Assembly (NCBI GenBank): GCA_002369235.1
Contig: DFFF01000024.1
Coordinates: 6,586 to 70,585, forward strand
DNA from: Verrucomicrobia bacterium UBA3783
GTDB taxonomy: Bacteria; Verrucomicrobiota; Kiritimatiellia; RFP12; UBA1067
Reading direction: 5' to 3'
Length of the DNA: 64,000 nucleotides
Positions within the stretch are counted from its first letter, which is position 1. Every line of letters starts with the position of its first letter. The translations under genes were made by a program, and so were the position numbers. The notes beneath the pieces are model-generated. The model was not told the DNA's origin, searched no databases, and worked only from the letters and a program-made list of their open reading frames with translations. Shown one piece after another: positions 27,653 through 39,800 of the stretch.

Positions 27653-28744
27653 TCAGCCAATCGTCCTGAGCGGCATGATCACGTAAATGAACGGAATGCT
27701 GCAGGTTATCACGGCGGCGGTGCTGCCATCGAGCATCTTGATCGTGATTTCATCGTCGTCGATCGCCTTGAGCGGATCGAGCAGATAGGCGGGATCGAAA
27801 CTCACCTCGATCTTCTCGCCGAGATACTTGATCGGCAGTTCGTCGTTCAGTTCCCCGATGTCGCTCGAGGACGAGCGCACGAAGAGCGTGTTGCCTTCAA
27901 ATGTAAGCGACGCCGAGCGGTCGTTTCCGAATACGCTCACGCGCTCGATCGCGCTGATGAACTCCTGGCGGTCGAGCTTTACTTCATTGGGGAGGTTGGT
28001 CGGAATTACGAGGCGGTAGTTGGGGTATTTGTCGTCGATGAGTTTGGAATAGATCGTTATGCCTTCAAGTTCGAAGGCGATGTTCGTGTTGCGCAGCACG
28101 ATCTTCACCTCGCCTTCTCCCTCAAGCGACTTGTTGATCTCGTTGATCGCCTTGGACGGAACGATCACATCGCGGTCGGTTCCCGCCGGAAATTCGAGTT
28201 CCTGCTCCACCATCGCCATGCGCTTGCCGTTGGTGGCGACCATCGTGAGCTTCTGATCCTTGAAACTGAAGAGCACTCCGCGGAGCGGACGGCGGGTCTC
28301 ATCCTGGGAAACGGCGTAGGCGACCTTGCGGATCATTTCGTGGAGAACCGCCTTTTCCACCGTGTATTGATAGTTTTCATCCTCAAGCGCGATGCGCGGA
28401 AAGTTCACCATGGGCTTGCCGGTGAATCTGTAGCGCGACCGGGCGGCGTTCACTACCGCAATGTCGTTTTCATCCACGCTCACGTTTACGATTCCATCCG
28501 TGGCTTTTGCAATCGCGGAAAAGAGCGTCTTGGCGGGAAGCGTGGTCGCGCCCGGCTCCTCTACTTCGCACTTCACCTCGCGCCGCACGGTCATGTCCAG
28601 ATCCGTGGTGGTCAAAACGAGCTTCCCGTCAGCCGCTTCAAGCAGCACGTTCTGCATCATCTGGTTTACCGCCTTCGCGGGAATGACGCTCTGTACATCC
28701 TTAAGTCCGTCGAGAAATGTTCCTTTGGTGATTGAAAGTTTCAT
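27653..28744 (-). CDS. dnaN: DNA polymerase III beta sliding clamp
   Basis: 363 aa. MKLSITKGTFLDGLKDVQSVIPAKAVNQMMQNVLLEAADGKLVLTTTDLDM and a three-domain repeat pattern are present, and it lies directly downstream of dnaA. Confidence 0.92.
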   Translation of the reverse strand: MKLSITKGTFLDGLKDVQSVIPAKAVNQMMQNVLLEAADGKLVLTTTDLDMTVRREVKCEVEEPGATTLPAKTLFSAIAKATDGIVNVSVDENDIAVVNAARSRYRFTGKPMVNFPRIALEDENYQYTVEKAVLHEMIRKVAYAVSQDETRRPLRGVLFSFKDQKLTMVATNGKRMAMVEQELEFPAGTDRDVIVPSKAINEINKSLEGEGEVKIVLRNTNIAFELEGITIYSKLIDDKYPNYRLVIPTNLPNEVKLDRQEFISAIERVSVFGNDRSASLTFEGNTLFVRSSSSDIGELNDELPIKYLGEKIEVSFDPAYLLDPLKAIDDDEITIKMLDGSTAAVITCSIPFIYVIMPLRTIG

Positions 28745-28941: not shown

Positions 28942-30351
28942 TCAGTCCCTCATGTCCTTCATCGAGAAGCCAAGTTTGTTGATAACTTCATTGAGTTTCT
29001 CCACAATCTGCGGTTCGGTGTCCAGATGGTTCTTGAACTTCTTTACGCCGCTGAGAATGGTGGCATGGGTCTTCTTGAAGTGCATTTCAAGCTGCTTGTA
29101 GCCAAGCTGGGTGAAGTTGTAGGAGATGAACATCGCCATCTGGCGCGGCAAAACAAGTTCCTGCGTCCGCTCCGACGACTGGATCTGTTCAAGCGTGATG
29201 TTGAAATGGCTGCAAACGGTGTCGATTATATCCTGGCAGGTTATCGCCTTTATCTTCTTTTCCTTGTCGATCTGGTCTTTCAGGATTATATTCAGAACCG
29301 TATTTGAAATATTGTCCTTGAAGTTGGGATCGTTTTCGGCGAGGACTTTGATCTTATTGAGAGCCCCTTCCATCGCGCGCACCTGGCTGCGGATGTTTTC
29401 GGCAATAAAGACGAGCGCCATTTCCGGAATGAGCGAAGCAAAGCTTTCCGCTTTCTTCTTCAAAATGGCGAGGCGGGTCTCGAATTGCGGAGCTTCAATC
29501 GACTGGACGATGCCGCCTTCGAAGCGGCTCATCAGTCTAGGCTCCAGCGCCGGCAGATTCTTTGGCGCGACATCGCTCGTCATCACAATCTGCTTGCCGT
29601 TGTTCTGGAGCGTGTAGAAAGTATTGAAAAATTCTTCCTGAAGATTGTTTTTCGACGCCATGAACTGCACATCGTCCATCAAGAGAACATCCAAAGTGCG
29701 GTAGCGCTGTCGGAAATTGTCCAGCGTATGCTTTTGCAGCGCATTCATGTATTCGTTCATGAACGCTTCGGCATTGATGTAGCAAATCTTCAGATCTGGC
29801 CGGTTGGCCTTGAGTTCGTTGCCGATCGCCTGCATGAGGTGGGTCTTGCCAAGCCCCGTGCCGCCATGGATGAAAAACGGATTGTAGGCCTTGTTGCCGG
29901 GGTCTTTCGATATGCCCTTCGCGGTGTTCAACGCCCAGCGGTTGGACATGCCCTCGACAAACTCCGAAAATACATACTCCGGCTTCAGGCTGAGTCCCAG
30001 CGGCTCCTCGGCGGCGGCGGCGCTATCCTGAAATTGAGAATGAAGCGGCTGCGCTTTCGGCGGCGCAATGGTAATATGCTTAGGCTCGGCAACGACATAT
30101 TTGAGCGAAAATGATTCCGGCGCCCCGGCAAGACGCAAAGCGTCCAAAAGTCTGTCCGACATCTTGTTTTCGAAAATCGACTTCGTTTGCTCGCTGTTGA
30201 GCGAAACCACCAAAGTGTCGCCATCCGTGCGCAAGTCCTCGACATTTGAAAAATGCCTCTCCGCCAGAGAACGATCCGCCTCCGAGTTCGTAAGCCTCAG
30301 ATATACTTCCCTCGCCCGCTTCCAGAGGTTATTCATCTCTTTGTCTTCCAT
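28942..30351 (-). CDS. dnaA: Chromosomal replication initiator protein DnaA
   Basis: 469 aa. It has the Walker A GGTGLGKTHLMQAIGNE and ...LLMDDVQFMASKNNLQEEFFNTFYTLQNNGKQIVMTSD, plus a C-terminal DNA-binding domain (...LPRQMAMFISYNFTQLGYKQLEMHFKKTHATILSGVKKF). Confidence 0.95.
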   Translation of the reverse strand: MEDKEMNNLWKRAREVYLRLTNSEADRSLAERHFSNVEDLRTDGDTLVVSLNSEQTKSIFENKMSDRLLDALRLAGAPESFSLKYVVAEPKHITIAPPKAQPLHSQFQDSAAAAEEPLGLSLKPEYVFSEFVEGMSNRWALNTAKGISKDPGNKAYNPFFIHGGTGLGKTHLMQAIGNELKANRPDLKICYINAEAFMNEYMNALQKHTLDNFRQRYRTLDVLLMDDVQFMASKNNLQEEFFNTFYTLQNNGKQIVMTSDVAPKNLPALEPRLMSRFEGGIVQSIEAPQFETRLAILKKKAESFASLIPEMALVFIAENIRSQVRAMEGALNKIKVLAENDPNFKDNISNTVLNIILKDQIDKEKKIKAITCQDIIDTVCSHFNITLEQIQSSERTQELVLPRQMAMFISYNFTQLGYKQLEMHFKKTHATILSGVKKFKNHLDTEPQIVEKLNEVINKLGFSMKDMRD

Positions 30352-30770
30352 TGCTGCCGCCTTTTCTGCTTGCCGTTTGCCGCCATTGCCCTTTTTTTCT
30401 GCTTGCCGTTTGCCGCCGTTGCGTTTGCTCTTTGCTGTTGTTCTGTTTTGCGCTTGCCGCCGTTGTGCTTGCTGTTGTTCTGTTGTTGCGCTTGCCTGCC
30501 GTTGCGCTTTTTGTTGCTACCGTTGTGCTCTTTGCTGTTGTTCTGTTTTGCTTGTCTGCCGTTGAGTTGCGTTCAGTTGCTCTCTTGTCTGTTTTAGTCT
30601 TGCGTTGCCATTACTGTAGTTCTGCGGCAGCCTTTACTGCTCGCGTTATCGCCTTTCATCCTCTGCTTGCGCTGTTTGTTGCTGCATTGTTGCTGGCATT
30701 GCCGTTCTTGTAGTTTATTGGTTTTCGTTGCTTTTGCTGCCGCACTGCTTTGAGTTGCTCTTTTCAACTG
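30352..30770. repeat. A-depleted (plus strand) imperfect-repeat tract forming the putative T/U-free leader of dnaA
   Basis: My count gives only 2 A residues on the plus strand in 30352-30564 (positions 30385 and 30519) and about 20 in 30352-30770. Internal direct repeats include CTGCTTGCCGTTTGCCGCC (x2) and CTCTTTGCTGTTGTTCTGTTTTGC (x2). Confidence 0.8.
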
Positions 30771-30795
30771 TAGACAGTGCGCCCTTTCAGCGTGT

Positions 30796-30804
30796 ATAAT
30801 ATCA
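30796..30804 (-). promoter_or_regulatory. Candidate dnaA promoter -10 (TGATATTAT, minus strand); a plus-strand TAGACA-18 bp-TATAAT (30771-30800) overlaps it divergently
   Basis: The minus strand reads ACAAAATATGATATTATACAC, one mismatch from the window's recurrent A-run + TGnTATAAT motif. It would give a leader of about 440 nt. The plus strand carries TAGACA at 30771-30776 and TATAAT at 30795-30800. Confidence 0.35.
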
Positions 30805-30851
30805 TATTTTGTCGCAATAAATCAATGAAATCTTATGATAAGTTATAAACG

Positions 30852-30876
30852 GTTATCAACAAATTTTGTTGATAAC
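30852..30876. promoter_or_regulatory. Perfect palindrome of two DnaA-box-like 9-mers (GTTATCAACAAA-T-TTTGTTGATAAC)
   Basis: Two 12-nt perfect inverted arms flank a single central T. They contain TTATCAACA (30853-30861) and TGTTGATAA (30867-30875), each one mismatch from TTATCCACA. The palindrome lies in the only AT-rich patch of the dnaA upstream region. Confidence 0.6.
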
Positions 30877-30900
30877 TCTGGTTGACAATGCTGTGGCATC

Positions 30901-31314
30901 TTCTAGCCTAGCAGGGCTAGCTGGGCTAGACGGGCTAGCTTTCTAGCTTTGCTAGCTTTTCTAGCCCTGCTAGCCCCTCTAGCTCTGCTAGCTTTTCTAG
31001 CCCCGCTAGACTAGCTAGCCCTTCTAGCTCCTCTAGCCCTTCTAGCCCCTCTAGCTGCGCTAGCCCCGCTAGCTTTTCTAGCTCTTCTAGCTTTTCTAGC
31101 TCTTCTGGCCCTGCTAGCTCTGCTAGTTCCTCTAGCCCTTCTGGCCCCGCTAGCTTTTCTAGCTCTTCTAGCTTTTCTAGCTCTTCTGGCCCTGCTAGCT
31201 CTTCTAGCCCTGCTAGCTTTTCTAGATCTCCTAGCCCCGCTAGCCCTGCTAGCTCTGCTAGTTTCTCTAGCTCTTCTAGCTCTTCTAGCCCCGCTAGACT
31301 AGCTAGCCCCGCTA
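30901..31314. repeat. Phase-locked 9-bp tandem array, unit CTAGC + 4 pyrimidine-rich nt (about 47 units)
   Basis: CTAG (CTGG in 3 units) starts at 30943 + 9k for k = 0..41, up to 31312. Four more units at 30908-30935 are in a register shifted by 1 bp. A 58-bp block at 31064-31121 is repeated exactly at 31145-31202 (offset 81 bp). Confidence 0.95.
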
Positions 31315-31446
31315 GAAGTCTAGCCTTCTAGACTACGAAGTCCAGCCTTCTAGACTACGAAGTCCAGCATCCTGGACTACGAAGTCTAGCCCCTTAGACT
31401 GCGAAGTCCAGACTTCTAGACTACGAAGTCCAGCCTTCTAGGCTAC
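31315..31446. repeat. Six tandem 22-bp repeats, each with a 16-bp dyad GTCYAG-N4-CTRGAC (iteron/centromere-like)
   Basis: Units start at 31315, 31337, 31359, 31381, 31403 and 31425, with consensus GAAGTCCAGCCTTCTAGACTAC. The dyad is perfect in unit 1 (GTCTAGCCTTCTAGAC) and unit 3 (GTCCAGCATCCTGGAC), and the spacer is TACGAA. Confidence 0.95.
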
Positions 31447-31461
31447 TAGGCGGACGGGCTT

Positions 31462-33939
31462 TTAGATATGACCGCGCTTGATGATGATTGCCAATACCGC
31501 GACGTCGGCCGGGTTGACGCCGGGGATCCGGGCGGCTTGGGCGAGAGTTTCGGGGCGGTGCTTTTTAAGCTTTTCCCGCGATTCATAACGCACCATATTG
31601 AGTTTGTCGTAATCAAGCCACCGCGGAATCGCGATCTGCTCGTCCTTCTTCGCCCGCTCCGACGCCTTTTTCTCCTGCTCGATATAAGGTAGATAATGAC
31701 GCATAATAGAAACCTGTTTTGCCGCCTCGTTGTGGATATATCCGCCATCACCGGATTCGACCGCTTCGCCCGATTCCATCATCCGCGCAATCTCCGAGAT
31801 TATGGCGCGGGTTTCGGTGCGGAATTGCTCCGATTTGATTTTCGCGGCGTCCGCGGCGTCCGCCAAGCGGTATCTGGCGTTGTCCTGTCGCAGGATAAGC
31901 CGGCGCTCGGCGCGGCTGGTGAACATCCGGTAGGGTTCATCGGTGCCCTTGGTGACCAGGTCGTCGATCATTACCCCAATGTAGGCGTCTTGTCGGCTCA
32001 ACACGAGCGGCGGCAGGTTGTCGGCTTTTCTGGCGGCATTGATGCCGGCCATGATTCCTTGTGCCGCCGCTTCCTCGTATCCGGTCGTGCCGTTGATTTG
32101 TCCGGCAAAGAAGAGATTGTCGATCCGTTTTGCCTCCAATGAATGCTTGAGTTCGCGGGAATCGATAGCGTCATACTCGATGGCATACGCATATGCCAGG
32201 AACTCCGCGTGTTCGAGCCCCGGAACCGAGCGCACCATTTTTTCCTGCACTTCGCGTGGCAGCGAGCAGCTTAGACCGTTAGGGTAGATGATTTTGCCGT
32301 CGGAGTCCTCCGGCTCCAGCATGACATGATGGCCTTGGGCATCGGGGAAGCGGACGATTTTATCTTCGATGCTGGGGCAATATCTGACCCCAGTCCCTAC
32401 AATTGCGCCGCCATAGAGCGAGGATTTTGCCAGATTTTGGCGGATTATGGCGTGCGTTTCGGGGGTCGTGTGGGTGAGATAACAGGGCAATTCTTTAAAA
32501 ATGTTCCACGTGGAACAGTCGGGTGGGGGCGGCAGTCCGGGACTTTTTACCCCAACCTCTGGACTTTGCGCCGCACTTTCCAGCTCTTGCGCCGCACTTT
32601 CCAGCTTTTGCGCCGCGCCTTCTGGCTTTTGCACCGTGCCTTCCGCCGCATTTACCGCGCTTTCCGCCGCATTTACCGCGCTTTCCGGCTTTTGCACCGT
32701 GCCTTCCGGCGCATTTACCGCACTCTCCGGCGCATTTACCGCGCCTTCCGGCCGATTGCCACCCTCTGTGGCAGTCGACCCGAAAGTCTCTCTGCGCACT
32801 CTGCGACTCTGCGACTCTGCGTTTAAAAAGCCAATGGCAGGCGCAAGCGCGTCTGGCGGTTCGCAATCCGGCCATTGATGTTCCACGTGGAACAATGTGG
32901 TTTGTGGATTGCAAGACCGGGGGTTGTTAGCCGGGAGATTGCGGTGTTCCACGTGGAACAATGGGCGCGGTTGCTCGCCGGACTGTGGGTTGGTAGCCGG
33001 GAGACTACGGTGTTCCACGTGGAACAATGGGCGCGGTTGCTCGCCCGGCTGGGGCTCGCACTTTGCGAAATCGCAGGATGCGGCGGTGAGCCGGGGCGGA
33101 GTGCCGGTCTTGAGTCGGATCAGTTCAAACCCAAGATCCGACAATGATTTGCTGAGTTCATTGACGGCCGGGCGTCCATCGCCGCCCGATTCGATACACT
33201 CTTGCCCTATCCATACCCTGCCGCGCAGGCTGGTTCCGGCGGTGATGACAATCGATTTTGCATGGATTTCGCCGTTTTTCGCGGTCAGAATCCCGGCAGC
33301 GACCGGATTTTCCGGTGTCATTTCCGGCTCTGCGGCGCAGGCGGCGAGGCTTGCGGCGTTGGTTTCGGGACTGGAAACTTGGGTTTCATTTGATGTTGCG
33401 GCGCAGGATCCGCCGGTGCTTGCGCGGGTTTCCGGGGCTGGAACTTGCGGCGGATTGGCGTCAAAACCGGTGATGCCGCCGCTCTCGGTGGCGGTCGACT
33501 CGTCACCCGGAAGCGGGAATTCCCGATCCTTCTGTCCGTTTGGGCTGCCGGAGGTCAGGATCGCGATGGCGGCGTCTTCAAGGACGGTGAGGTTCGGTTC
33601 GGCGTCGATTACCGCCTGCATGCGCTTGGCGTAGGCAAGCTTGTCGCACTGGGTGCGGGTGGCGTGGACGGCACAGCCTTTGGAGCGGTTCAGAATCTTG
33701 CTCTGGAGCGCGGTCGCGTCGGCGTTTTTCCCCATTTCGCCGCCCAAGGCATCGAGCTCGTGGACGAGGTGGCTTTTGGCGAGTCCGCCGATCGACGGGT
33801 TGCACGGCATCCTGCCGATTGCGTCGCGTCTGGCGGTGACGAGCAGGGTCTTTTTGCCCATTCTGGCCGACGCCAGGGACGCTTCGCACCCCGCGTGGCC
33901 GCCGCCAACCACAATAACATCAAAATCTGTCGCTTTCAT
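31462..33939 (-). CDS. mnmG: tRNA uridine-5-carboxymethylaminomethyl modification enzyme MnmG (GidA), expanded to 825 aa by two in-frame low-complexity insertions
   Basis: It has the FAD motif [22 protein letters not shown], then [39 protein letters not shown]..., and the C-terminal [26 protein letters not shown]. Insertions lie at about aa 128-216 and about aa 311-483 relative to recalled E. coli MnmG (~630 aa). Confidence 0.9.
32502..32517. other. parS-type centromere site, perfect 16-bp palindrome TGTTCCACGTGGAACA
   Basis: It is an exact palindrome whose half-site TGTTCCAC matches the canonical ParB/Spo0J site TGTTNCACGTGAAACA. Within mnmG it is read as ...CSTWN... Confidence 0.75.
32549..32758. 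repeat. About ten tandem 21-bp coding repeats (heptapeptide PE[GS]A[VA][NQ][AK] units) inside mnmG
   Basis: Nine full units run from 32570 to 32758 at exact 21-bp steps, plus a degenerate unit at 32549-32569. On the minus strand they translate as [63 protein letters not shown]. Confidence 0.9.
32879..32894. other. parS-type site TGTTCCACGTGGAACA (copy 2)
   Basis: Exact 16-bp palindrome, encoded in mnmG as LFHVEH. Confidence 0.75.
32945..32960. other. parS-type site TGTTCCACGTGGAACA (copy 3)
   Basis: Exact 16-bp palindrome, encoded as LFHVEH. Confidence 0.75.
33011..33026. other. parS-type site TGTTCCACGTGGAACA (copy 4)
   Basis: Exact 16-bp palindrome, encoded as LFHVEH. This copy coincides with the conserved MnmG P-x-F-S-F loop position. 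Confidence 0.75.
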
Positions 33940-35164: not shown

Positions 35165-36478
35165 ATGGCGACATTCCAATATATCGCGAAGGATGCATCT
35201 GGACAGGAGACCCGCGGGGTGGTGGAGGCTGGCGACCGCGCCGGGGCGATTGCGTCGGTTCGCGCGATGGGGCTTATTCCGACCGCGCTTGGCGAAGTGA
35301 AGGGCGGCGGCGCACCGGCGCCGGCGAAGAAGGGCGCGAAGGCGCCGGCTCCCGCGAAGAAGAAGGGCAGTGCGCTCAACAAGGACATCAAGATCAACAT
35401 CAAGATGCCCAAGTTCCTTCAGGGCAAGATCAAGACTCCGGTGCTGACGCAGTTTACGCGCCAGCTGGCGACGCTGGTGAACGCGGGGCTGCCGCTGATG
35501 CGCGGCATCGACGTCTTGAAGCGCCAGATGAAAGATCCGCAGATGCTCGACGCGCTGGGCGGCATTTCCGAGAATATCGCCGCCGGCGGCACGTTCTCGG
35601 AAGCGCTCACGCTCTATCCGAAGATTTTCGACAAGCTCTACGTCAACATGGTGAAGGCGGGCGAAGCGGGCGGCGTTCTGGAAGTGGTGCTCGGCCGCCT
35701 TGCCGAATTCGCCGAAAAGAGCGAGAAGATCAAGAACAAGGTCAAGGGCGCGATGATCTATCCGATCGTCGTCTTGTTCGCCGCCGTGGGCATTACCGGG
35801 TTTTTGCTGGTCGCGGTCATCCCGAAGTTCAAGCAGGTGTTCGCGGACATGCTCGGCGGCGCGTCGCTCCCGGCGATCACCGAGGCGGTGATCCAGGCTT
35901 CGGAGTGGGTGCAGCACAACGGGCTTACGATCGTCGTCGCGGTCGTGGCGCTCACCGTCATCAAGAAGGTGATCGGCAAGACCGAGAAGGGCGCCTACCT
36001 CTACGACGTGTTGGCGCTCAAGATGCCGGTCACGGGAACTTTGGTGCAGCGCACGGCGGTTTCGCGGGTGACGCGCACTCTGGGCACGCTCCTTTCCTCC
36101 GGCGTGCCGATCCTCCAGTCGCTCGTGATCGTGCGCGACACGACGGGCAACCGCGTCGTCTCCAAGGCCTTGCAGGACGTGCATGACGCGGTGAAGGAAG
36201 GCGAAGGCATGACCGGTCCGCTCTCGCAGTGCAAGGTGTTTCCGCCGATGGTCGTTTCGATGGTGGAGGTCGGCGAAGAGACGGGTGCGCTGGCGGACAT
36301 GCTCACGCGCATCGCCAATACCTACGACGACGAGGTGGACAACGCCGTCGCGGGCATGACGGCGGCGATCGAGCCGGCGCTCATCATCGTCCTCGCGGTG
36401 GTCGTGGGCACGATCGTGATCGCCATGTTCCTGCCGATGATCAAGATCATTTCGTCCGTATCGGGAGCCGGCGCCTAA
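35165..36478 (+). CDS. gspF: Type II secretion / type IV pilus platform protein (GspF/PilC family)
   Basis: 437 aa with two GspF-type repeats (...LTQFTRQLATLVNAGLPLMRGIDVL... and ...VSRVTRTLGTLLSSGVPILQSLVIV...) and 3 TM segments. A Lys/Ala/Pro-rich insertion lies near the N-terminus. Confidence 0.85.
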   Translation: MATFQYIAKDASGQETRGVVEAGDRAGAIASVRAMGLIPTALGEVKGGGAPAPAKKGAKAPAPAKKKGSALNKDIKINIKMPKFLQGKIKTPVLTQFTRQLATLVNAGLPLMRGIDVLKRQMKDPQMLDALGGISENIAAGGTFSEALTLYPKIFDKLYVNMVKAGEAGGVLEVVLGRLAEFAEKSEKIKNKVKGAMIYPIVVLFAAVGITGFLLVAVIPKFKQVFADMLGGASLPAITEAVIQASEWVQHNGLTIVVAVVALTVIKKVIGKTEKGAYLYDVLALKMPVTGTLVQRTAVSRVTRTLGTLLSSGVPILQSLVIVRDTTGNRVVSKALQDVHDAVKEGEGMTGPLSQCKVFPPMVVSMVEVGEETGALADMLTRIANTYDDEVDNAVAGMTAAIEPALIIVLAVVVGTIVIAMFLPMIKIISSVSGAGA

Positions 36479-36479
36479 G

Positions 36480-37748
36480 ATGAAAAAAGGCTTTACGCTC
36501 ATCGAGATGCTCATCGTCGTGGCCGTCCTCGTGACGCTCATGACGATGGTGTTCCGCTTGAGTTCGGTGGGCAGCACGTCGGCCGCGAAGAATACGACGA
36601 TCGCGCGGCTGCAGCGTCTGGAGAACTGCCTTTCCGGGTATTACGCGGCGTTCGGGTCGTATCCGCCGGTGAAGCTGCACGGTACGCGCAACATTTATGC
36701 GAAGACGAGCACCCACGGCATCCAGTCGATGAACGAAGGCGACCAGGACAACTCGTCGATCTGGGGGTGGGATCCGGACAAGATGAGGGCGGGCACGGCG
36801 AGCGCGTCCGACCAGACGGCCGAGGCGGCGGCGTGGCGGCAGGTGAATGCGGCGTGCAGATCCCAGCCGGTGGACATGGCCTTCCCCTGCACCAGTCAGA
36901 TGGCCGAGATCTTCGAGGCGCTTTCGGACGGACTCAAGGAGCTGGCCAACAGCGACGAATACCGCGAGACTTTGGAGCGGCAGGGTCTTTACGAGATGTT
37001 CAACGCCGGCTTCACCGATTCCGGCAACAGCGACATCATCGGCCGCTTCAATCCCTACCGCGACGAGGCGGAGTGGTCGGACGTGCAGATTTTCAAGTTC
37101 GGGCTCATGAGCTATCTGCTGCCCCGTTATCTGGTGATGGTCAACGGCCACGACTCGTTCTACCGCTCGTATGCGCAGTGGACCGAAAACAACTCTGCCC
37201 CGCGCAGCCCGATGGACGGGCGAACCAGGCTCGATTGGGTGTCTGACGTGAAGAACCAGGTTGAGAAATACAATCGCTCGGACAATCCCAATCCTTCCGA
37301 CATCATCGAGGTCGCGAACCTGCCTTCCCAGGCGGTGTGCGCCAGGTGGATCCCGAATCTGGAATCGATGTGCGCGGTCGGCAGCGGCATGGAACTCAAG
37401 CTCTTCGGCATCAATGTGACCGACTACAGCCAGAGCGTGCTTGCGTATGTAGGCCAGGGTGAATGCCTGTGGATGATGAAGGATTTGATTTTCTCGCCTG
37501 GTTCCTACGACGACGACTCCACCTCCTACCAATACGTGCTGGACAACGTGACGGTGAAGGACGGGTGGTGGAACACCGTCTACTACTATTCGCCGCCGCC
37601 CTACCAGAGCTACGTCTTGTGGTCCGCCGGTCCCAACGGGCGGACGTTCCCGCCGTGGGTGCCGCTAGATTCTTCGGACCTCTCGTCCTCGGCGCGCAAG
37701 TGCATCGGATACTGGATCGAGGATGATATCGTCAACCTTTCCAACTAA
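36480..37748 (+). CDS. Large prepilin-type (pseudo)pilin, GspG-like core with a ~250-aa insertion
   Basis: It has the N-terminal cleavage/methylation motif MKKGFTLIEMLIVVAVLVTL. The C-terminal DGWWNTVYYYSPPPYQSYVLWSAGPNG resembles the GspG D-P-W-G...S-x-G-x-D-G block; 422 aa. Confidence 0.7.
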   Translation: MKKGFTLIEMLIVVAVLVTLMTMVFRLSSVGSTSAAKNTTIARLQRLENCLSGYYAAFGSYPPVKLHGTRNIYAKTSTHGIQSMNEGDQDNSSIWGWDPDKMRAGTASASDQTAEAAAWRQVNAACRSQPVDMAFPCTSQMAEIFEALSDGLKELANSDEYRETLERQGLYEMFNAGFTDSGNSDIIGRFNPYRDEAEWSDVQIFKFGLMSYLLPRYLVMVNGHDSFYRSYAQWTENNSAPRSPMDGRTRLDWVSDVKNQVEKYNRSDNPNPSDIIEVANLPSQAVCARWIPNLESMCAVGSGMELKLFGINVTDYSQSVLAYVGQGECLWMMKDLIFSPGSYDDDSTSYQYVLDNVTVKDGWWNTVYYYSPPPYQSYVLWSAGPNGRTFPPWVPLDSSDLSSSARKCIGYWIEDDIVNLSN

Positions 37749-37758
37749 AGGAGCAGAC

Positions 37759-38358
37759 ATGCAAAAAGGATTTACTCTTGTCGAGATGCTGGTGGTGATC
37801 GGGATCATCGCGGTTCTGACCGGTGCGTCGATCGCGGGCTTTTCGAAGATGCGCGCGACGGCGGAGCGCGCCAAGGCGCAGGAGTTGGTTTCGAACACCG
37901 CGACGGCGCTCTCGGCGATTTTGCAGGAGAAGGGTTTCTGGCCCAAGCGGCTTTTGGAGGAGGCGGCGAGCGGCGACGGCCGGCTCGAGGCGACGGCGGC
38001 GTTCGCGCTCAGAAACCATTTGTCGCTCAACAACAACGGCTCGGTGTTGATCGGACTCGACCGGCTCGGGGTTTTCGACAGCTGGGGGGCGGCGACCATA
38101 AAGGCGCGCGGCAGTTCAGCATCGCTTTCGAGCCCGGTGGGCACCGGCGGCACGCTCGAGGACCATATTCTCCATTTTGCAATCGACCTTGACGACGATG
38201 GCTTCACCGAGGCGAGCGTGGGCGGCGAAAGTCTGAAGATCCGCGCGACGGCGGCCGTGTGGTGCGCCGGCAAGGACGGCAAGCTGTCCGGCTACAAAGC
38301 GGGGCTCAAGGGCGACGACATCTATTCATGGTCGAGGGGGCAGGTGGCCAATGACTAA
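37759..38358 (+). CDS. Prepilin-type N-terminal methylation-domain (pseudo)pilin
   Basis: The ATG at 37759 has AAAGGAG upstream. MQKGFTLVEMLVVIGIIAVLTG is present; 199 aa. Confidence 0.75.
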   Translation: MQKGFTLVEMLVVIGIIAVLTGASIAGFSKMRATAERAKAQELVSNTATALSAILQEKGFWPKRLLEEAASGDGRLEATAAFALRNHLSLNNNGSVLIGLDRLGVFDSWGAATIKARGSSASLSSPVGTGGTLEDHILHFAIDLDDDGFTEASVGGESLKIRATAAVWCAGKDGKLSGYKAGLKGDDIYSWSRGQVAND

Positions 38359-38917
38359 GCGGACGCGAGCGGGCTTCACGATCGTGGAGCTGATGATGGT
38401 CGTCGGGATCATAGCGGTCCTGATGACGATCGTCACCACGGCGGCGGGCGGCGCGATCAAGTCGGCGCGCGCCCACAAGGGCGATGCGCTCGTCGCCATG
38501 ATCCAGGTGGGGCTCAACACCTACTACGCCCAGAAGGAAGAATGGCCGGGAAGCTTCGGGAACAAGGTCGCCGGCGGCATCACGAGCAACATCAACGGCG
38601 ACGACGACAACTATCTGCTATCGACTTCCGAGGCCGACGAATGCATCGCGGAGATGGTGAGGGAGTCGGTGCACGGCAATCCGCTTCTGGACGTCACCGG
38701 GCTTTTCGTGTGCCGGAGTTCGATGGCGAATTCCGACAAGGCGGTGGGGATGGACTTCATGGACGCGGTGCACGGCACGAAGCGCAGCCCCAAGAAGATG
38801 AAGCTGGCGGAGATGGCCTTCGGGTATCCGCGCGCGAGCGACGGCAGATTCCGCAGGTTCAGGATCACCTATTCGATTCCGGCGGACACGATAACGGTGG
38901 CGAAGCAAGACAACTGA
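38351..38917 (+). CDS. Prepilin-type (pseudo)pilin
   Basis: MTKRTRAGFTIVELMMVVGIIAVL is present; 188 aa. It overlaps the upstream gene by 8 nt. Confidence 0.75.
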   Translation: MTKRTRAGFTIVELMMVVGIIAVLMTIVTTAAGGAIKSARAHKGDALVAMIQVGLNTYYAQKEEWPGSFGNKVAGGITSNINGDDDNYLLSTSEADECIAEMVRESVHGNPLLDVTGLFVCRSSMANSDKAVGMDFMDAVHGTKRSPKKMKLAEMAFGYPRASDGRFRRFRITYSIPADTITVAKQDN

Positions 38918-38924
38918 ACGGAAA

Positions 38925-39800
38925 ATGAAACGCGCATTCACACTACTTGAACTTCTGGTCGTGATCGGCATCATGGGTCTCTTGGGCACGGTGTCGATCG
39001 GCGGATACAGGGCGGTGACGCGGGGCATGGAGGAGCGCGGCGCGGTGGACAATGCCAGCCGCTTCATCCATGCGGCGTTCCAGCGCGCGATGATCGACCG
39101 CGCGCCGGTGATCGTGTTCTACTGGAACGAGACGATCAAGGAAGAGGACGATGAAAATCCCGCGGTGGTCGTGGGCAAGGCGATTGCGGTCAGGCGCGCG
39201 GGCAGGATTTCGCTCGCCCGGCCGCCGTATCTCTACGACGAATTTGCGGATTTGAACCTCACCTACGCCGTCCAAGGCGAGGAGGGAGCCTCGGCCAATG
39301 CATCGACCGGCATGTACCTTTATCAGATGAGCGACATTTCCGACACCGCCAAGAAGCGCTCGCGCGTGAAAGACAGTGTATACGCGCAGGAAGTGGACGA
39401 GGTATATCTCCAGGATCCCTACGGCAACCAGGAGGCGGAGACGGCGCAGGCGAACGGGCTGCCGGTGCCGACCGATCCTGCAATCCACATGTATGGATTC
39501 GAGATCGTCGATCGCGGCGGCGTGGATTGGCGGAACGGCGATGCGTACGGATTCGAGTTCCAGACGCTCACCTTGCCGCACAACTATATCTTCGGGTCTG
39601 AGTTCAGCCGGACGATGTCCAATCCCGTGACCGGCGAAAACAAGATTGTGTTCGGCGGCGGCGCCGGCGGCTACGCCAACCGCGGCGCGAACTCCAGCAG
39701 CGGGCGCGTCCAGATAAACGTCCTGAGGCCAAACGCGACCGGCGCGCTCACTCCCAAGGCGGTTGGCCAGACGGAAGATCCAACGAGGGGAGAGAACTGA
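38925..39800 (+). CDS. Prepilin-type minor pseudopilin (GspH-like position)
   Basis: MKRAFTLLELLVVIGIMGLLG is present; 291 aa. Confidence 0.7.
   Translation: MKRAFTLLELLVVIGIMGLLGTVSIGGYRAVTRGMEERGAVDNASRFIHAAFQRAMIDRAPVIVFYWNETIKEEDDENPAVVVGKAIAVRRAGRISLARPPYLYDEFADLNLTYAVQGEEGASANASTGMYLYQMSDISDTAKKRSRVKDSVYAQEVDEVYLQDPYGNQEAETAQANGLPVPTDPAIHMYGFEIVDRGGVDWRNGDAYGFEFQTLTLPHNYIFGSEFSRTMSNPVTGENKIVFGGGAGGYANRGANSSSGRVQINVLRPNATGALTPKAVGQTEDPTRGEN

Follow-up and report, generated by a model that had tools for sequence, protein, structure and literature searches.

Within the 64-kb stretch of DNA that was analysed (hereafter the window), the gene mnmG lies beside dnaA, to which dnaN (27653-28744) is adjacent, and the cumulative GC skew is lowest in the same part of the window, at ~30-32 kb. 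The region between dnaA and mnmG carries an inverted pair of DnaA boxes, which is kept in the relative L202, and this region is likely to be oriC. The three main features are as follows.

28942-30351, minus strand: dnaA (Pfam Bac_DnaA, 1.4e-59), the nearest parS being 2.15 kb from the dnaA start
30352-31461, no strand: dnaA-mnmG intergenic region, with the inverted DnaA-box pair (TTATCAACA) at 30853-30875 and dense tandem repeats
31462-33939, minus strand: mnmG (gidA) ORF of 825 aa with two lineage-specific inserts (Pfam GIDA, E=2e-142; SAM_GIDA_C, 5.6e-23)

An exact-match scan of the window located four perfect copies of the 16-bp palindrome TGTTCCACGTGGAACA, which are listed here in gene order.

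33011-33026, no strand: predicted parS copy 1, gene nt 914-929, translated L305-F-H-V-E-H310 and overlapping the conserved P-x-F-S motif
32945-32960, no strand: predicted parS copy 2, gene nt 980-995, translated LFHVEH
32879-32894, no strand: predicted parS copy 3, gene nt 1046-1061, translated LFHVEH
32502-32517, no strand: predicted parS copy 4, gene nt 1423-1438, translated in a different frame as C-S-T-W-N, directly before the conserved LPCYLTHT segment

These are the positions at which the initial annotation had placed four perfect palindromes. All four sites are within mnmG, where they span 525 bp at a distance of ~2.1-2.7 kb from dnaA, which agrees with the earlier estimate of about 2 kb, and the cluster is origin-proximal, being near dnaA-dnaN, the DnaA-box pair and the GC-skew minimum. 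No fifth match was present in the window at up to 2 mismatches (shuffle expectation 0.02), and a separate scan of the window allowing up to 3 mismatches again gave zero sites beyond the four already known. Each of the four palindromes matches the parS consensus tGTTNCACGTGAAACa, and the same 16-mer constitutes parS2 and parS3 of P. aeruginosa (PMC4368675 Table 1) as well as a parS of P. putida; the assignment of the palindromes to the parS type, also made earlier, is supported by this identity. The different frame reported for the fourth site agrees with the translation, and the peptide CSTWN is kept at this site in the homologues P0001, P0002 and P0003. As the 16-mer contains no stop codon in any frame, it can be carried in a protein as FHVEH, CSTWN or VPRGT.

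MnmG (GidA) is the enzyme of the carboxymethylaminomethyl modification of tRNA U34. The mnmG ORF is open and of full length, with the GIDA FAD-binding/insertion domains and the C-terminal helical domain; calls for an identical protein exist on 3 contigs, and the protein aligns with the MnmG structure PDB 2ZXH (E=1.8e-149) in four collinear blocks (HMMER). The initial annotation, although correct in the positions of the sites, had passed over the two inserts within this protein and the 21-bp repeats in the second of them. The inserts and the tandem repeats are as follows.

33310-33552, minus strand: MnmG insert 1, residues ~130-210, without a parS in this genome
32494-33021, minus strand: MnmG loop insert 2, residues ~307-482 (query 307 corresponds to 249, and query 482 to 265, of the 2ZXH chain)
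32853-33050, minus strand: three 66-bp (22-codon) tandem units (32985-33050, 32919-32984 and 32853-32918), with one parS per unit, recognised by Tandem Repeats Finder (TRF) and by a 66-bp indel relative to L201
32565-32752, minus strand: 21-bp (7-codon) and 63-bp tandem repeats, coding for a low-complexity peptide rich in A/E/N/Q/V, in the spacer between parS 3 and parS 4, recognised by TRF and by a 63-bp indel relative to L201

Insert 2 provides 175 residues in place of a loop of ~15 residues in the reference MnmG. The counterpart of insert 1 in L202 holds one parS (gene nt 649, read as CSTWN). In an AF2 model insert 2 has a pLDDT of <50 and nearly no secondary structure, and both inserts are suggested to be unstructured; however, the whole model, which was based on an alignment of 34 sequences, is poor (mean pLDDT 57.6) and lends weak support to this suggestion. 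The region of parS copy 1 aligns with PGDDPPPKFS of the Aquifex aeolicus MnmG (2ZXH) and with PPPFFS of relatives, in line with the earlier remark that the copy at 33011 falls on the conserved P-x-F-S-F loop. In this case, the canonical P-x-F-S is absent, as it has been overwritten by parS copy 1 and reads P-L-F-H, and the same is seen in 107 of the 120 best homologues. This is a deviation within the MnmG family and provides no ground for excluding the protein from it; the conserved motifs are otherwise intact, and the MnmG with its passenger loop is predicted to remain active.

The array of sites is built from direct repeats of a single unit, each with one palindrome, three such 66-bp units being present in this genome. 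TRF reports a period of 66 bp over 32879-33045, with 2.5 copies and 85% matches; units 1 and 2 are nearly identical, whereas unit 3 has the same parS with diverged flanks. Thus the spacing and the LFHVEH translation of the three-site coding tandem proposed earlier stand, but its description as a 22-aa unit repeated three times was slightly generous. An allele with 97% identity is set apart by exactly one 66-bp unit and one 63-bp block, and in the closest alleles (P0001/L201 and P0002) the tandem array is shorter by one 66-bp unit, and hence by one parS, which indicates that the array is polymorphic in copy number, although copy numbers of tandem repeats in metagenome assemblies are open to misassembly. 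The 21-bp repeats inside the 175-residue insert are also polymorphic. When this genome is compared with L201 and P0002, the 66-bp units look as if recombination or conversion had rearranged them. Tandem arrays in other relatives arose independently, some of them also with a 66-bp period, viz. L364, where 5 sites are spaced by 66-66-66-60 bp, and L363, where 6 sites are spaced by 51-69 bp.

The arrangement in this genome had been regarded as unusual. However, it is instead the rule in a large clade, as peptides encoded by parS are present in the same MnmG loop in 120/120 of the best homologues, with 1-6 of them in each. The loop varies from 77 to 233 residues among these homologues and its frame is open throughout; the residues flanking the sites are unconserved, and P0066 has a minimal loop with one site and no insert. 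The check at the DNA level covered 13 genes with 45-97% identity between their proteins, and 40 of their 43 sites are perfect (16/16), two have one mismatch and one has two. Sites were absent from the flanks of these 13 genes except in L053, where one lies immediately upstream of mnmG. In more distant relatives (L002-L006, L035, Opitutia and Puniceicoccales) the PPFFS motif is intact and a parS pair is found further down the loop in any of the three frames, which indicates that the presence of parS in this loop predates, and does not depend on, its fusion with P-x-F. Due to this, the earlier view that a coding segment which was parS-like by chance had been amplified is not the best account. 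Of that earlier interpretation, the parS type of the sites, their position at the origin and the in-frame tandem hold up, but the locus is not an oddity of a single genome. Further, in L148, a Kiritimatiellae genome, the expanded loop contains no parS and the sites lie downstream of mnmG, indicating that the placement of parS within mnmG is not obligatory.

No parA or parB gene was found in the window, either by tblastn with Bacillus-type proteins or with profile HMMs (40 ParB and 33 ParA ORFs as their input) at E<=1, which agrees with what had been noted from the sequence; by the same two approaches none was found near mnmG in 19 PVC loci, and the next 8.6 kb of the 153-kb contig on the left side encode neither ParB nor ParA. 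However, when an alignment from Verrucomicrobiota/Lentisphaeria was used as the query, ParB homologues were detected in six Kiritimatiellia genomes (MAGs) and in many Verrucomicrobiota; a 5-sequence, Planctomycetota-led ParB alignment had matched Verrucomicrobiota and no Kiritimatiellia. These ParBs contain the GERRxRA box and residues of the ParB type rather than the Noc type, and in Kiritimatiellia the canonical ParB genes are unlinked to parS. A ParABS system has been reported in another member of the Verrucomicrobia, Akkermansia muciniphila (PMC10197239). A scan of species-representative genomes showed tight pairs of the exact 16-mer to be spread over many phyla. Across the 80 analysed loci, the pairs are mostly found beside parA-parB, as in Acidobacteriota, Clostridia, Planctomycetota and others, or directly flanking mnmG/gidA, as in Bacteroidota, Pseudomonadota and Sneathiella; only in Verrucomicrobiota/Kiritimatiellia are they inside mnmG.

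The lack of parAB near any of the PVC mnmG loci that were examined, and the abundance in the origin region of other repeats which are potential sites for unknown factors, could be taken to indicate that the palindrome is an operator for a protein other than ParB, such as a regulator of mnmG/dnaA or an origin-associated factor. However, this is unlikely, as the sequence is that of an experimentally validated parS, the identical pairs stand beside parAB in the phyla noted above, and the ParBs of Kiritimatiellia have the canonical residues of parS-binding type.

It is less probable still that the palindromes act as RNA, with base pairing in the mnmG mRNA, in hairpins or over long range, tuning its translation, its stability or read-through into dnaA. 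The stretch of three units has a predicted fold of -82 kcal/mol (z=-7.1 against shuffles), and the copy at 32502, which is followed by a T-run, was flagged as terminator-like. However, a strong fold is an automatic outcome of repeated palindromes, and the stem formed by a lone site is only 6 bp long. Among genes of just 50-97% identity, neither the central ACGT nor any base of the stem varies and compensatory changes are absent, which is the signature of recognition of the DNA by a protein and not of pairing in RNA, and elsewhere the motif is present beside parAB in non-transcribed contexts. Based on the triviality of the fold, RNA structure was rejected as the primary function of these sites, and folding of the transcript may be a side effect.

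The conservation of the encoded peptide should likewise not be interpreted as showing that selection acts on the protein. In 107 of the 120 homologues the sequence L-F-H-V-E-H/Q directly follows the conserved G-E-x-P-R-P (i.e. PRPL-FHVE[HQ] at the position of copy 1), and the Phe of FHVEH aligns with the conserved Phe of P-x-F-S, as would be expected if FHVEH were a functional (e.g. metal-binding) His-rich repeat of MnmG whose likeness to parS is incidental. However, the sites of the 13 genes use three reading frames (28/8/4, the FHVE frame accounting for 28), and other copies and lineages translate the identical 16-mer as CSTWN or VPRGT, from which it follows that selection is on the DNA rather than on the peptide. 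Further, all 28 of the sites in the FHVE frame are coded as TTC-CAC-GTG-GAA, one of the 32 possible codings, without any synonymous variation, while the codon before FHVE is always NTG and that after it always CAN, as the palindrome demands. The parS is thus kept as DNA regardless of its coding context. Its copy number ranges from 1 to 6 and the motif is absent from reference MnmG enzymes, and a role at the protein level is highly improbable. An equally slight chance is given to the insert being the remnant of a mobile or selfish element (MITE-like, intein-like or intron-like) with the palindromes as its termini, which was rejected because, although the palindromes bracket ~380 bp of repeat-rich DNA between 32517 and 32879 and the insert is lineage-specific and variable, neither the palindrome nor the insert has another copy in the window, transposase, intein and intron signatures are absent and Rfam is empty there, the frame is always open, the minimal loop of P0066 has a single site and no insert, and the sites are confined to mnmG across many genomes.

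Based on these observations, the locus is best explained as an origin-proximal loading array for ParB, which is carried in frame by a permissive loop of MnmG and is resized by tandem duplication; we place the probability of this explanation at about 0.8. The four palindromes would be chromosomal parS sites, at which a CTP-dependent ParB clamp is predicted from their sequence to bind and load, and the reading frame that runs through them belongs to a long, probably disordered insertion in a MnmG surface loop. The array would gain and lose short coding units, which are of 66 bp in this genome, when strands slip or repeats recombine unequally; copies that lose the palindrome would decay, and the enzyme would tolerate the passenger sequence. 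A ParB whose gene probably lies in another part of the genome would be loaded at the four palindromes, spread by sliding across the origin region and assemble a partition complex, with or without ParA, and it may also load SMC. We infer from this that the four sites have a role in segregation, and the protein sequence of the loop appears to be dictated by DNA serving chromosome segregation.

A broader proposal, which we put forward tentatively and at somewhat less than even odds, is that in Kiritimatiellia and related Verrucomicrobiota the main, and perhaps the only, centromere lies wholly inside a housekeeping coding sequence. The MnmG loop would then be a 'centromere cassette', the FHVEH, CSTWN and VPRGT peptides and the disordered linkers between them being a by-product of selection for ParB sites, with in-frame birth and death of the tandem units, and with parB moved away and no parA adjacent to it. 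Other lineages may have similar in-frame arrays, one example being an ORF with a Wzy_C domain in Patescibacteria that contains 6-8 sites.

The ParB-array reading would provide a clean natural case of a cis-acting segregation element dictating a protein sequence, in which one DNA signal of 16 bp is kept to the base in three frames, an enzyme loop is inflated more than tenfold and copy number differs between near-identical strains. The peptides FHVEH, CSTWN and VPRGT can be searched for in MnmG, and in uncultured Verrucomicrobiota/Kiritimatiellia they would mark the origin and centromere from sequence alone. The array is also a natural test bed for how many close parS sites a cell wants, and for how ParB clamps operate alongside transcription and translation of the host gene, and it is a caution for genome annotation, as a low-complexity insert in a conserved enzyme may be a feature of the DNA. 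No account of such an arrangement was found in the literature, whose coverage here was incomplete, so that this is absence of evidence only. Intragenic parS sites are already known; what sets the present locus apart is the clade-wide, in-frame array within the MnmG loop.

In comparison with chromosomal parS sites of other ParABS systems, such as the Spo0J sites of B. subtilis and parS1-4 of P. aeruginosa near oriC, the sites described here are similarly origin-proximal 16-bp palindromes, in a cluster of four. However, they differ in being all located in a single ORF, within 525 bp and one protein loop, in that three of them form an in-frame 66-bp tandem which extends this loop from ~15 to 175 residues, and in that parAB is unlinked and the copy number varies from 1 to 6 across the clade. 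The sopC centromere of the F plasmid consists of twelve 43-bp repeats, each with a 16-bp inverted repeat to which SopB binds. Like the array in mnmG, it is made of short direct repeats with one palindrome of the ParB family in each, whose number changes via gain or loss of units; however, sopC is non-coding, whereas the units in mnmG must stay in frame, free of stop codons and translated within an enzyme. Location within a gene has precedents, as intragenic parS sites of P. aeruginosa have been mutated without an amino acid change, and centromere-like palindromes occur inside protein-coding genes of repABC replicons (PMC9040568). However, the latter are in partition or replication genes of secondary replicons and are usually single, and they are not known to form a tandem in the loop of a housekeeping enzyme. 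The closest likeness in gene neighbourhood is with the parS pairs of Bacteroidota, Pseudomonadota and Sneathiella, which share both the 16-mer and the neighbouring gene; in those groups the pairs are intergenic, immediately before or after mnmG, whereas in Verrucomicrobiota/Kiritimatiellia they are within its coding sequence, and the long-known association of mnmG and parS thus extends to the full internalisation of the sites.

The 16-mer TGTTCCACGTGGAACA has exactly four matches in the 64-kb window, at 32502, 32879, 32945 and 33011, which are the positions where the initial annotation had placed four perfect copies of the ParB-site palindrome (parS). No further match is present in the window at up to 2 mismatches (shuffles predict 0.02), and a separate scan of the window at up to 3 mismatches also gave no extra site. 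All four copies lie in one open reading frame, identified by Pfam as MnmG/GidA (GIDA E=2e-142; SAM_GIDA_C), where they start, in gene order, at nt 914, 980, 1046 and 1423, and a 66-bp period across 32879-33045 is detected by Tandem Repeats Finder. The first three are translated as L-F-H-V-E-H and the fourth as C-S-T-W-N, in agreement with the earlier reading, and three assembled contigs have an identical copy of this protein; the source sequence is an ENA metagenome scaffold of 153 kb. The main features are as follows.

Features of the mnmG-dnaN region (window coordinates)
31462-33939, minus strand: mnmG, one open reading frame of 825 aa, all four parS inside
30853-30875: inverted DnaA-box pair TTATCAACA in the dnaA-mnmG spacer
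28942-30351, minus strand: dnaA (Pfam), downstream of mnmG on the same strand
27653-28744, minus strand: dnaN (Pfam), downstream of mnmG on the same strand

The 16-mer is letter for letter that of P. aeruginosa parS2/parS3 (PMC4368675 Table 1), and a review on chromosomal ParB (PMC7022226) gives the same sequence for the P. putida parS. When species-representative genomes were scanned for two copies 20-50 bp apart, such tight pairs were found in many phyla, and most of those at the 80 loci analysed adjoin parA-parB or immediately flank mnmG, as is expected of genuine parS. Due to this adjacency to parAB in other genomes and the identity with validated parS, it is unlikely that the palindrome is recognised by a different DNA-binding protein. 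The four sites are also origin-proximal, because dnaA and dnaN are neighbours, the DnaA-box pair is present and the cumulative GC skew is lowest at 30-32 kb of the window.

Alignment of the protein to A. aeolicus MnmG (PDB 2ZXH) gives four collinear blocks and shows two inserts, viz. insert 1 (residues ~130-210), which takes the place of about two residues in the reference, and insert 2 (residues ~307-482), which stands in place of reference residues 250-264, starting at the conserved P-x-F-S motif (aligned with PGDDPPPKFS) and ending just before the conserved LPCYLTHT segment. Insert 2, referred to here as the loop, consists of three 22-codon units with one parS each, an unrelated stretch, 7-codon (21-bp) repeats rich in A/E/N/Q/V, and the fourth parS. 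In an AlphaFold2 model based on 34 homologues, which is poor overall (mean pLDDT 57.6), both inserts have pLDDT <50 and almost no secondary structure, which hints that they may be disordered surface loops. Insert 1 (33310-33552) is lineage-specific, of low complexity, located in the FAD-domain hairpin and free of parS in the window; its equivalent in the related locus L202 carries a perfect parS at gene nt 649, read CSTWN.

Thirteen mnmG genes, whose proteins are 45-97% identical to that of the window, were examined at the DNA level. They contain 40 perfect (16/16) parS, two that have one mismatch and one that has two mismatches, and all three reading frames are used (FHVE 28, CSTWN 8, VPRGT 4). 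Each of the 28 FHVE-frame sites is coded TTC-CAC-GTG-GAA, a single choice among 32 synonymous possibilities, and it is always preceded by an NTG codon (L, M or V) and followed by a CAN codon (H or Q), which is exactly what the palindrome requires. Between the sites, the loop is of low complexity and its residues are not conserved, and decayed copies (FHMEH, FLVEQ, VSRGT, VPHGT) are also seen. This clade-wide nucleotide conservation indicates that selection acts on the parS DNA and not on the peptide; the palindrome, having no stop codon in any frame, is able to ride in a coding region. If the palindromes served primarily at the RNA level, then the strong predicted fold (z=-7.1) and the terminator-like flag at 32502 would be in keeping with this; however, repeated palindromes give rise to both as a matter of course, and the palindromes are invariant, without covariation. 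An RNA role is thus rejected as their primary function, although a side effect on mnmG mRNA is possible. Selection of the repeat at the protein level is excluded by the use of all three frames and the lack of synonymous variation, and a mobile-element origin of the insert is rejected, as the 64-kb window holds no hallmark and no second copy.

The nearest species-representative genomes are MAGs of uncultured Verrucomicrobia and Kiritimatiellae (best-segment identity 48-65%), and all have perfect 16-mer copies in the same MnmG loop: four in locus L001, two each in L002, L003, L004, L006 (Opitutia) and L035, and one in L053, which has another upstream of mnmG. The paired-site scan adds Puniceicoccales, Opitutaceae and further Kiritimatiellia and Verrucomicrobiota, and among the 80 loci a pair inside mnmG is limited to these Verrucomicrobiota/Kiritimatiellia lineages. 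When the window's MnmG was searched against 5.8 billion proteins, parS-encoded peptides were present in the loop in 120/120 of the best 120 matches, with one copy in 6 proteins, two in 45, three in 39, four in 11, five in 16 and six in 3. The loop opens with PRPL-FHVE[HQ] in 107 of these 120, and some loops of normal length hold a single parS written over P-x-F-S (e.g. protein P0066). In a Kiritimatiellae MAG (L148, 791-4962), the expanded loop lacks parS and the sites, one just past the mnmG stop and a pair ~2 kb downstream, are outside the gene; the intragenic arrangement is thus common, but not obligatory. A separate intragenic parS occurs in the variable linker that precedes the C-terminal domain of MnmG, at ~nt 1565 of the gene (L052 7568; L030 7569; L043 2422), as TGTTCCACGTGGAACA read MFHVEH in an Akkermansia MAG and as TGTTTCACGTGAAACA in Desulfuromonadales and Geobacterales. 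Two Patescibacteria MAGs (Parcubacteria, Moraniibacteriota) have 6-8 perfect parS (L094 7008-7813; L092 6877-7758) in a long open frame with a Wzy_C (O-antigen ligase) domain, which may be a second in-frame parS array in another host gene.

The array is polymorphic. The closest allele, P0001 (locus L201), is 97% identical in aligned columns, P0002 being similar, and both have two tandem units versus three in the window; the loop DNA of the window and L201 differs by exactly two indels, one of 66 bp and one of 63 bp, the second of which comprises three 21-bp repeats. P0003 (L202), which shares the window's gene order (T2SS - metalloenzyme - mnmG - dnaA - dnaN - rlmL), has three perfect parS, one of them in insert 1. 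Independent tandem arrays are present in L364 (five parS, spacings 66-66-66-60 bp) and L363 (six parS, spacings 51-69 bp), and the flanks of the 66-bp units appear reshuffled. In-frame tandem amplification, which the initial annotation considered unusual, is, based on these copy-number differences and independent arrays, instead the loop's normal mode of evolution in this clade.

Several other features of this region may be described here. The spacer contains ~40 tandem copies of the 9-bp unit CTAGCTCTT (30935-31289; super-period 45 bp), with an extraordinary local CTAG density; this array is absent from L202. Six copies of the 22-bp unit GAAGTCCAGCCTTCTAGACTAC (31315-31446) directly follow the mnmG stop, and the equivalent place in L202 (12505-12625) is occupied by ~five units of 22/23 bp that share the core ACTACGTAG. 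These iteron-like repeats are beside the DnaA-box pair and may be an origin element. An A-poor stretch immediately upstream of the dnaA start (30360-30720) has only T/G/C-rich short repeats of periods 16-37; the AT skew for 30-32 kb is ~-0.33, a strong strand asymmetry, and all tandem repeats of the window scoring at least 150 are within 30.9-33.05 kb (spacer and mnmG loop). While mnmG is co-oriented with and upstream of dnaA in the window, L202, L363 and L365, the two genes are divergent in L364 (8132-12073; GCA_002395905.1); mnmG underwent inversion beside the origin. A cluster at 35165-39800, in which the gene for T2SS protein F precedes several whose products have N-terminal methylation (pilin-like) motifs, is conserved beside mnmG in L201 and L202. 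Past the window's left end, the source contig (L366, 14093-21803) has a gene for a 3839-residue protein with no Pfam hit, preceded by a run of small unannotated genes.

No ParA or ParB genes were found in the window, as noted initially, nor in 19 mnmG loci of the PVC group or in a further 8.6 kb of the source contig. Canonical ParB is, however, present in six Kiritimatiellia MAGs (including Pontiella), in Lentisphaeria and in many Verrucomicrobiia. These proteins have the GERRxRA box and, in the alignment, the ParB-type residues at two Spo0J-vs-Noc positions (R in GK-x-R, G in x-G-H), which we take to be linked to parS specificity. In the 15 PVC parB loci examined (among L283-L302; Kiritimatiellia, Lentisphaeria, Verrucomicrobiia), neither parS nor parA is found within ~3 kb. 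In these lineages, the classic linkage of parA, parB and parS is disrupted, which is in keeping with a centromere at another locus, viz. mnmG. A Hi-C study (PMC10197239) described ParABS homologues in each of the 12 genomes of a set of mouse gut strains that includes Akkermansia muciniphila.

Sites of the parS type are already known, intragenic ones included, e.g. in repABC replicons (PMC9040568), and the mnmG/gidA-parS neighbourhood is also known; our literature search did not turn up any account of an MnmG loop that carries in-frame parS arrays, nor of the conservation of such arrays across the clade or their in-frame turnover by tandem units. As an example it is unusually clean, and it lends itself to immediate testing. 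Judging from the sequences, ParB is predicted to bind the mnmG sites, which would have a role in segregation, and MnmG is predicted to be active although P-L-F-H replaces P-x-F-S. In the proposed mechanism, a permissive MnmG loop would carry the parS array, whose copy number would shift via slippage or unequal recombination between units, with the 16-bp palindromes themselves supplying homology; the four sites would serve for the loading of ParB-CTP clamps, which would then slide across the origin region and build the partition complex. The presence of several close-set parS would raise the rate of ParB loading, and for this gain from multi-site loading the mnmG array may be likened to origins with multiple parS and to the tandem-repeat centromeres of plasmids.
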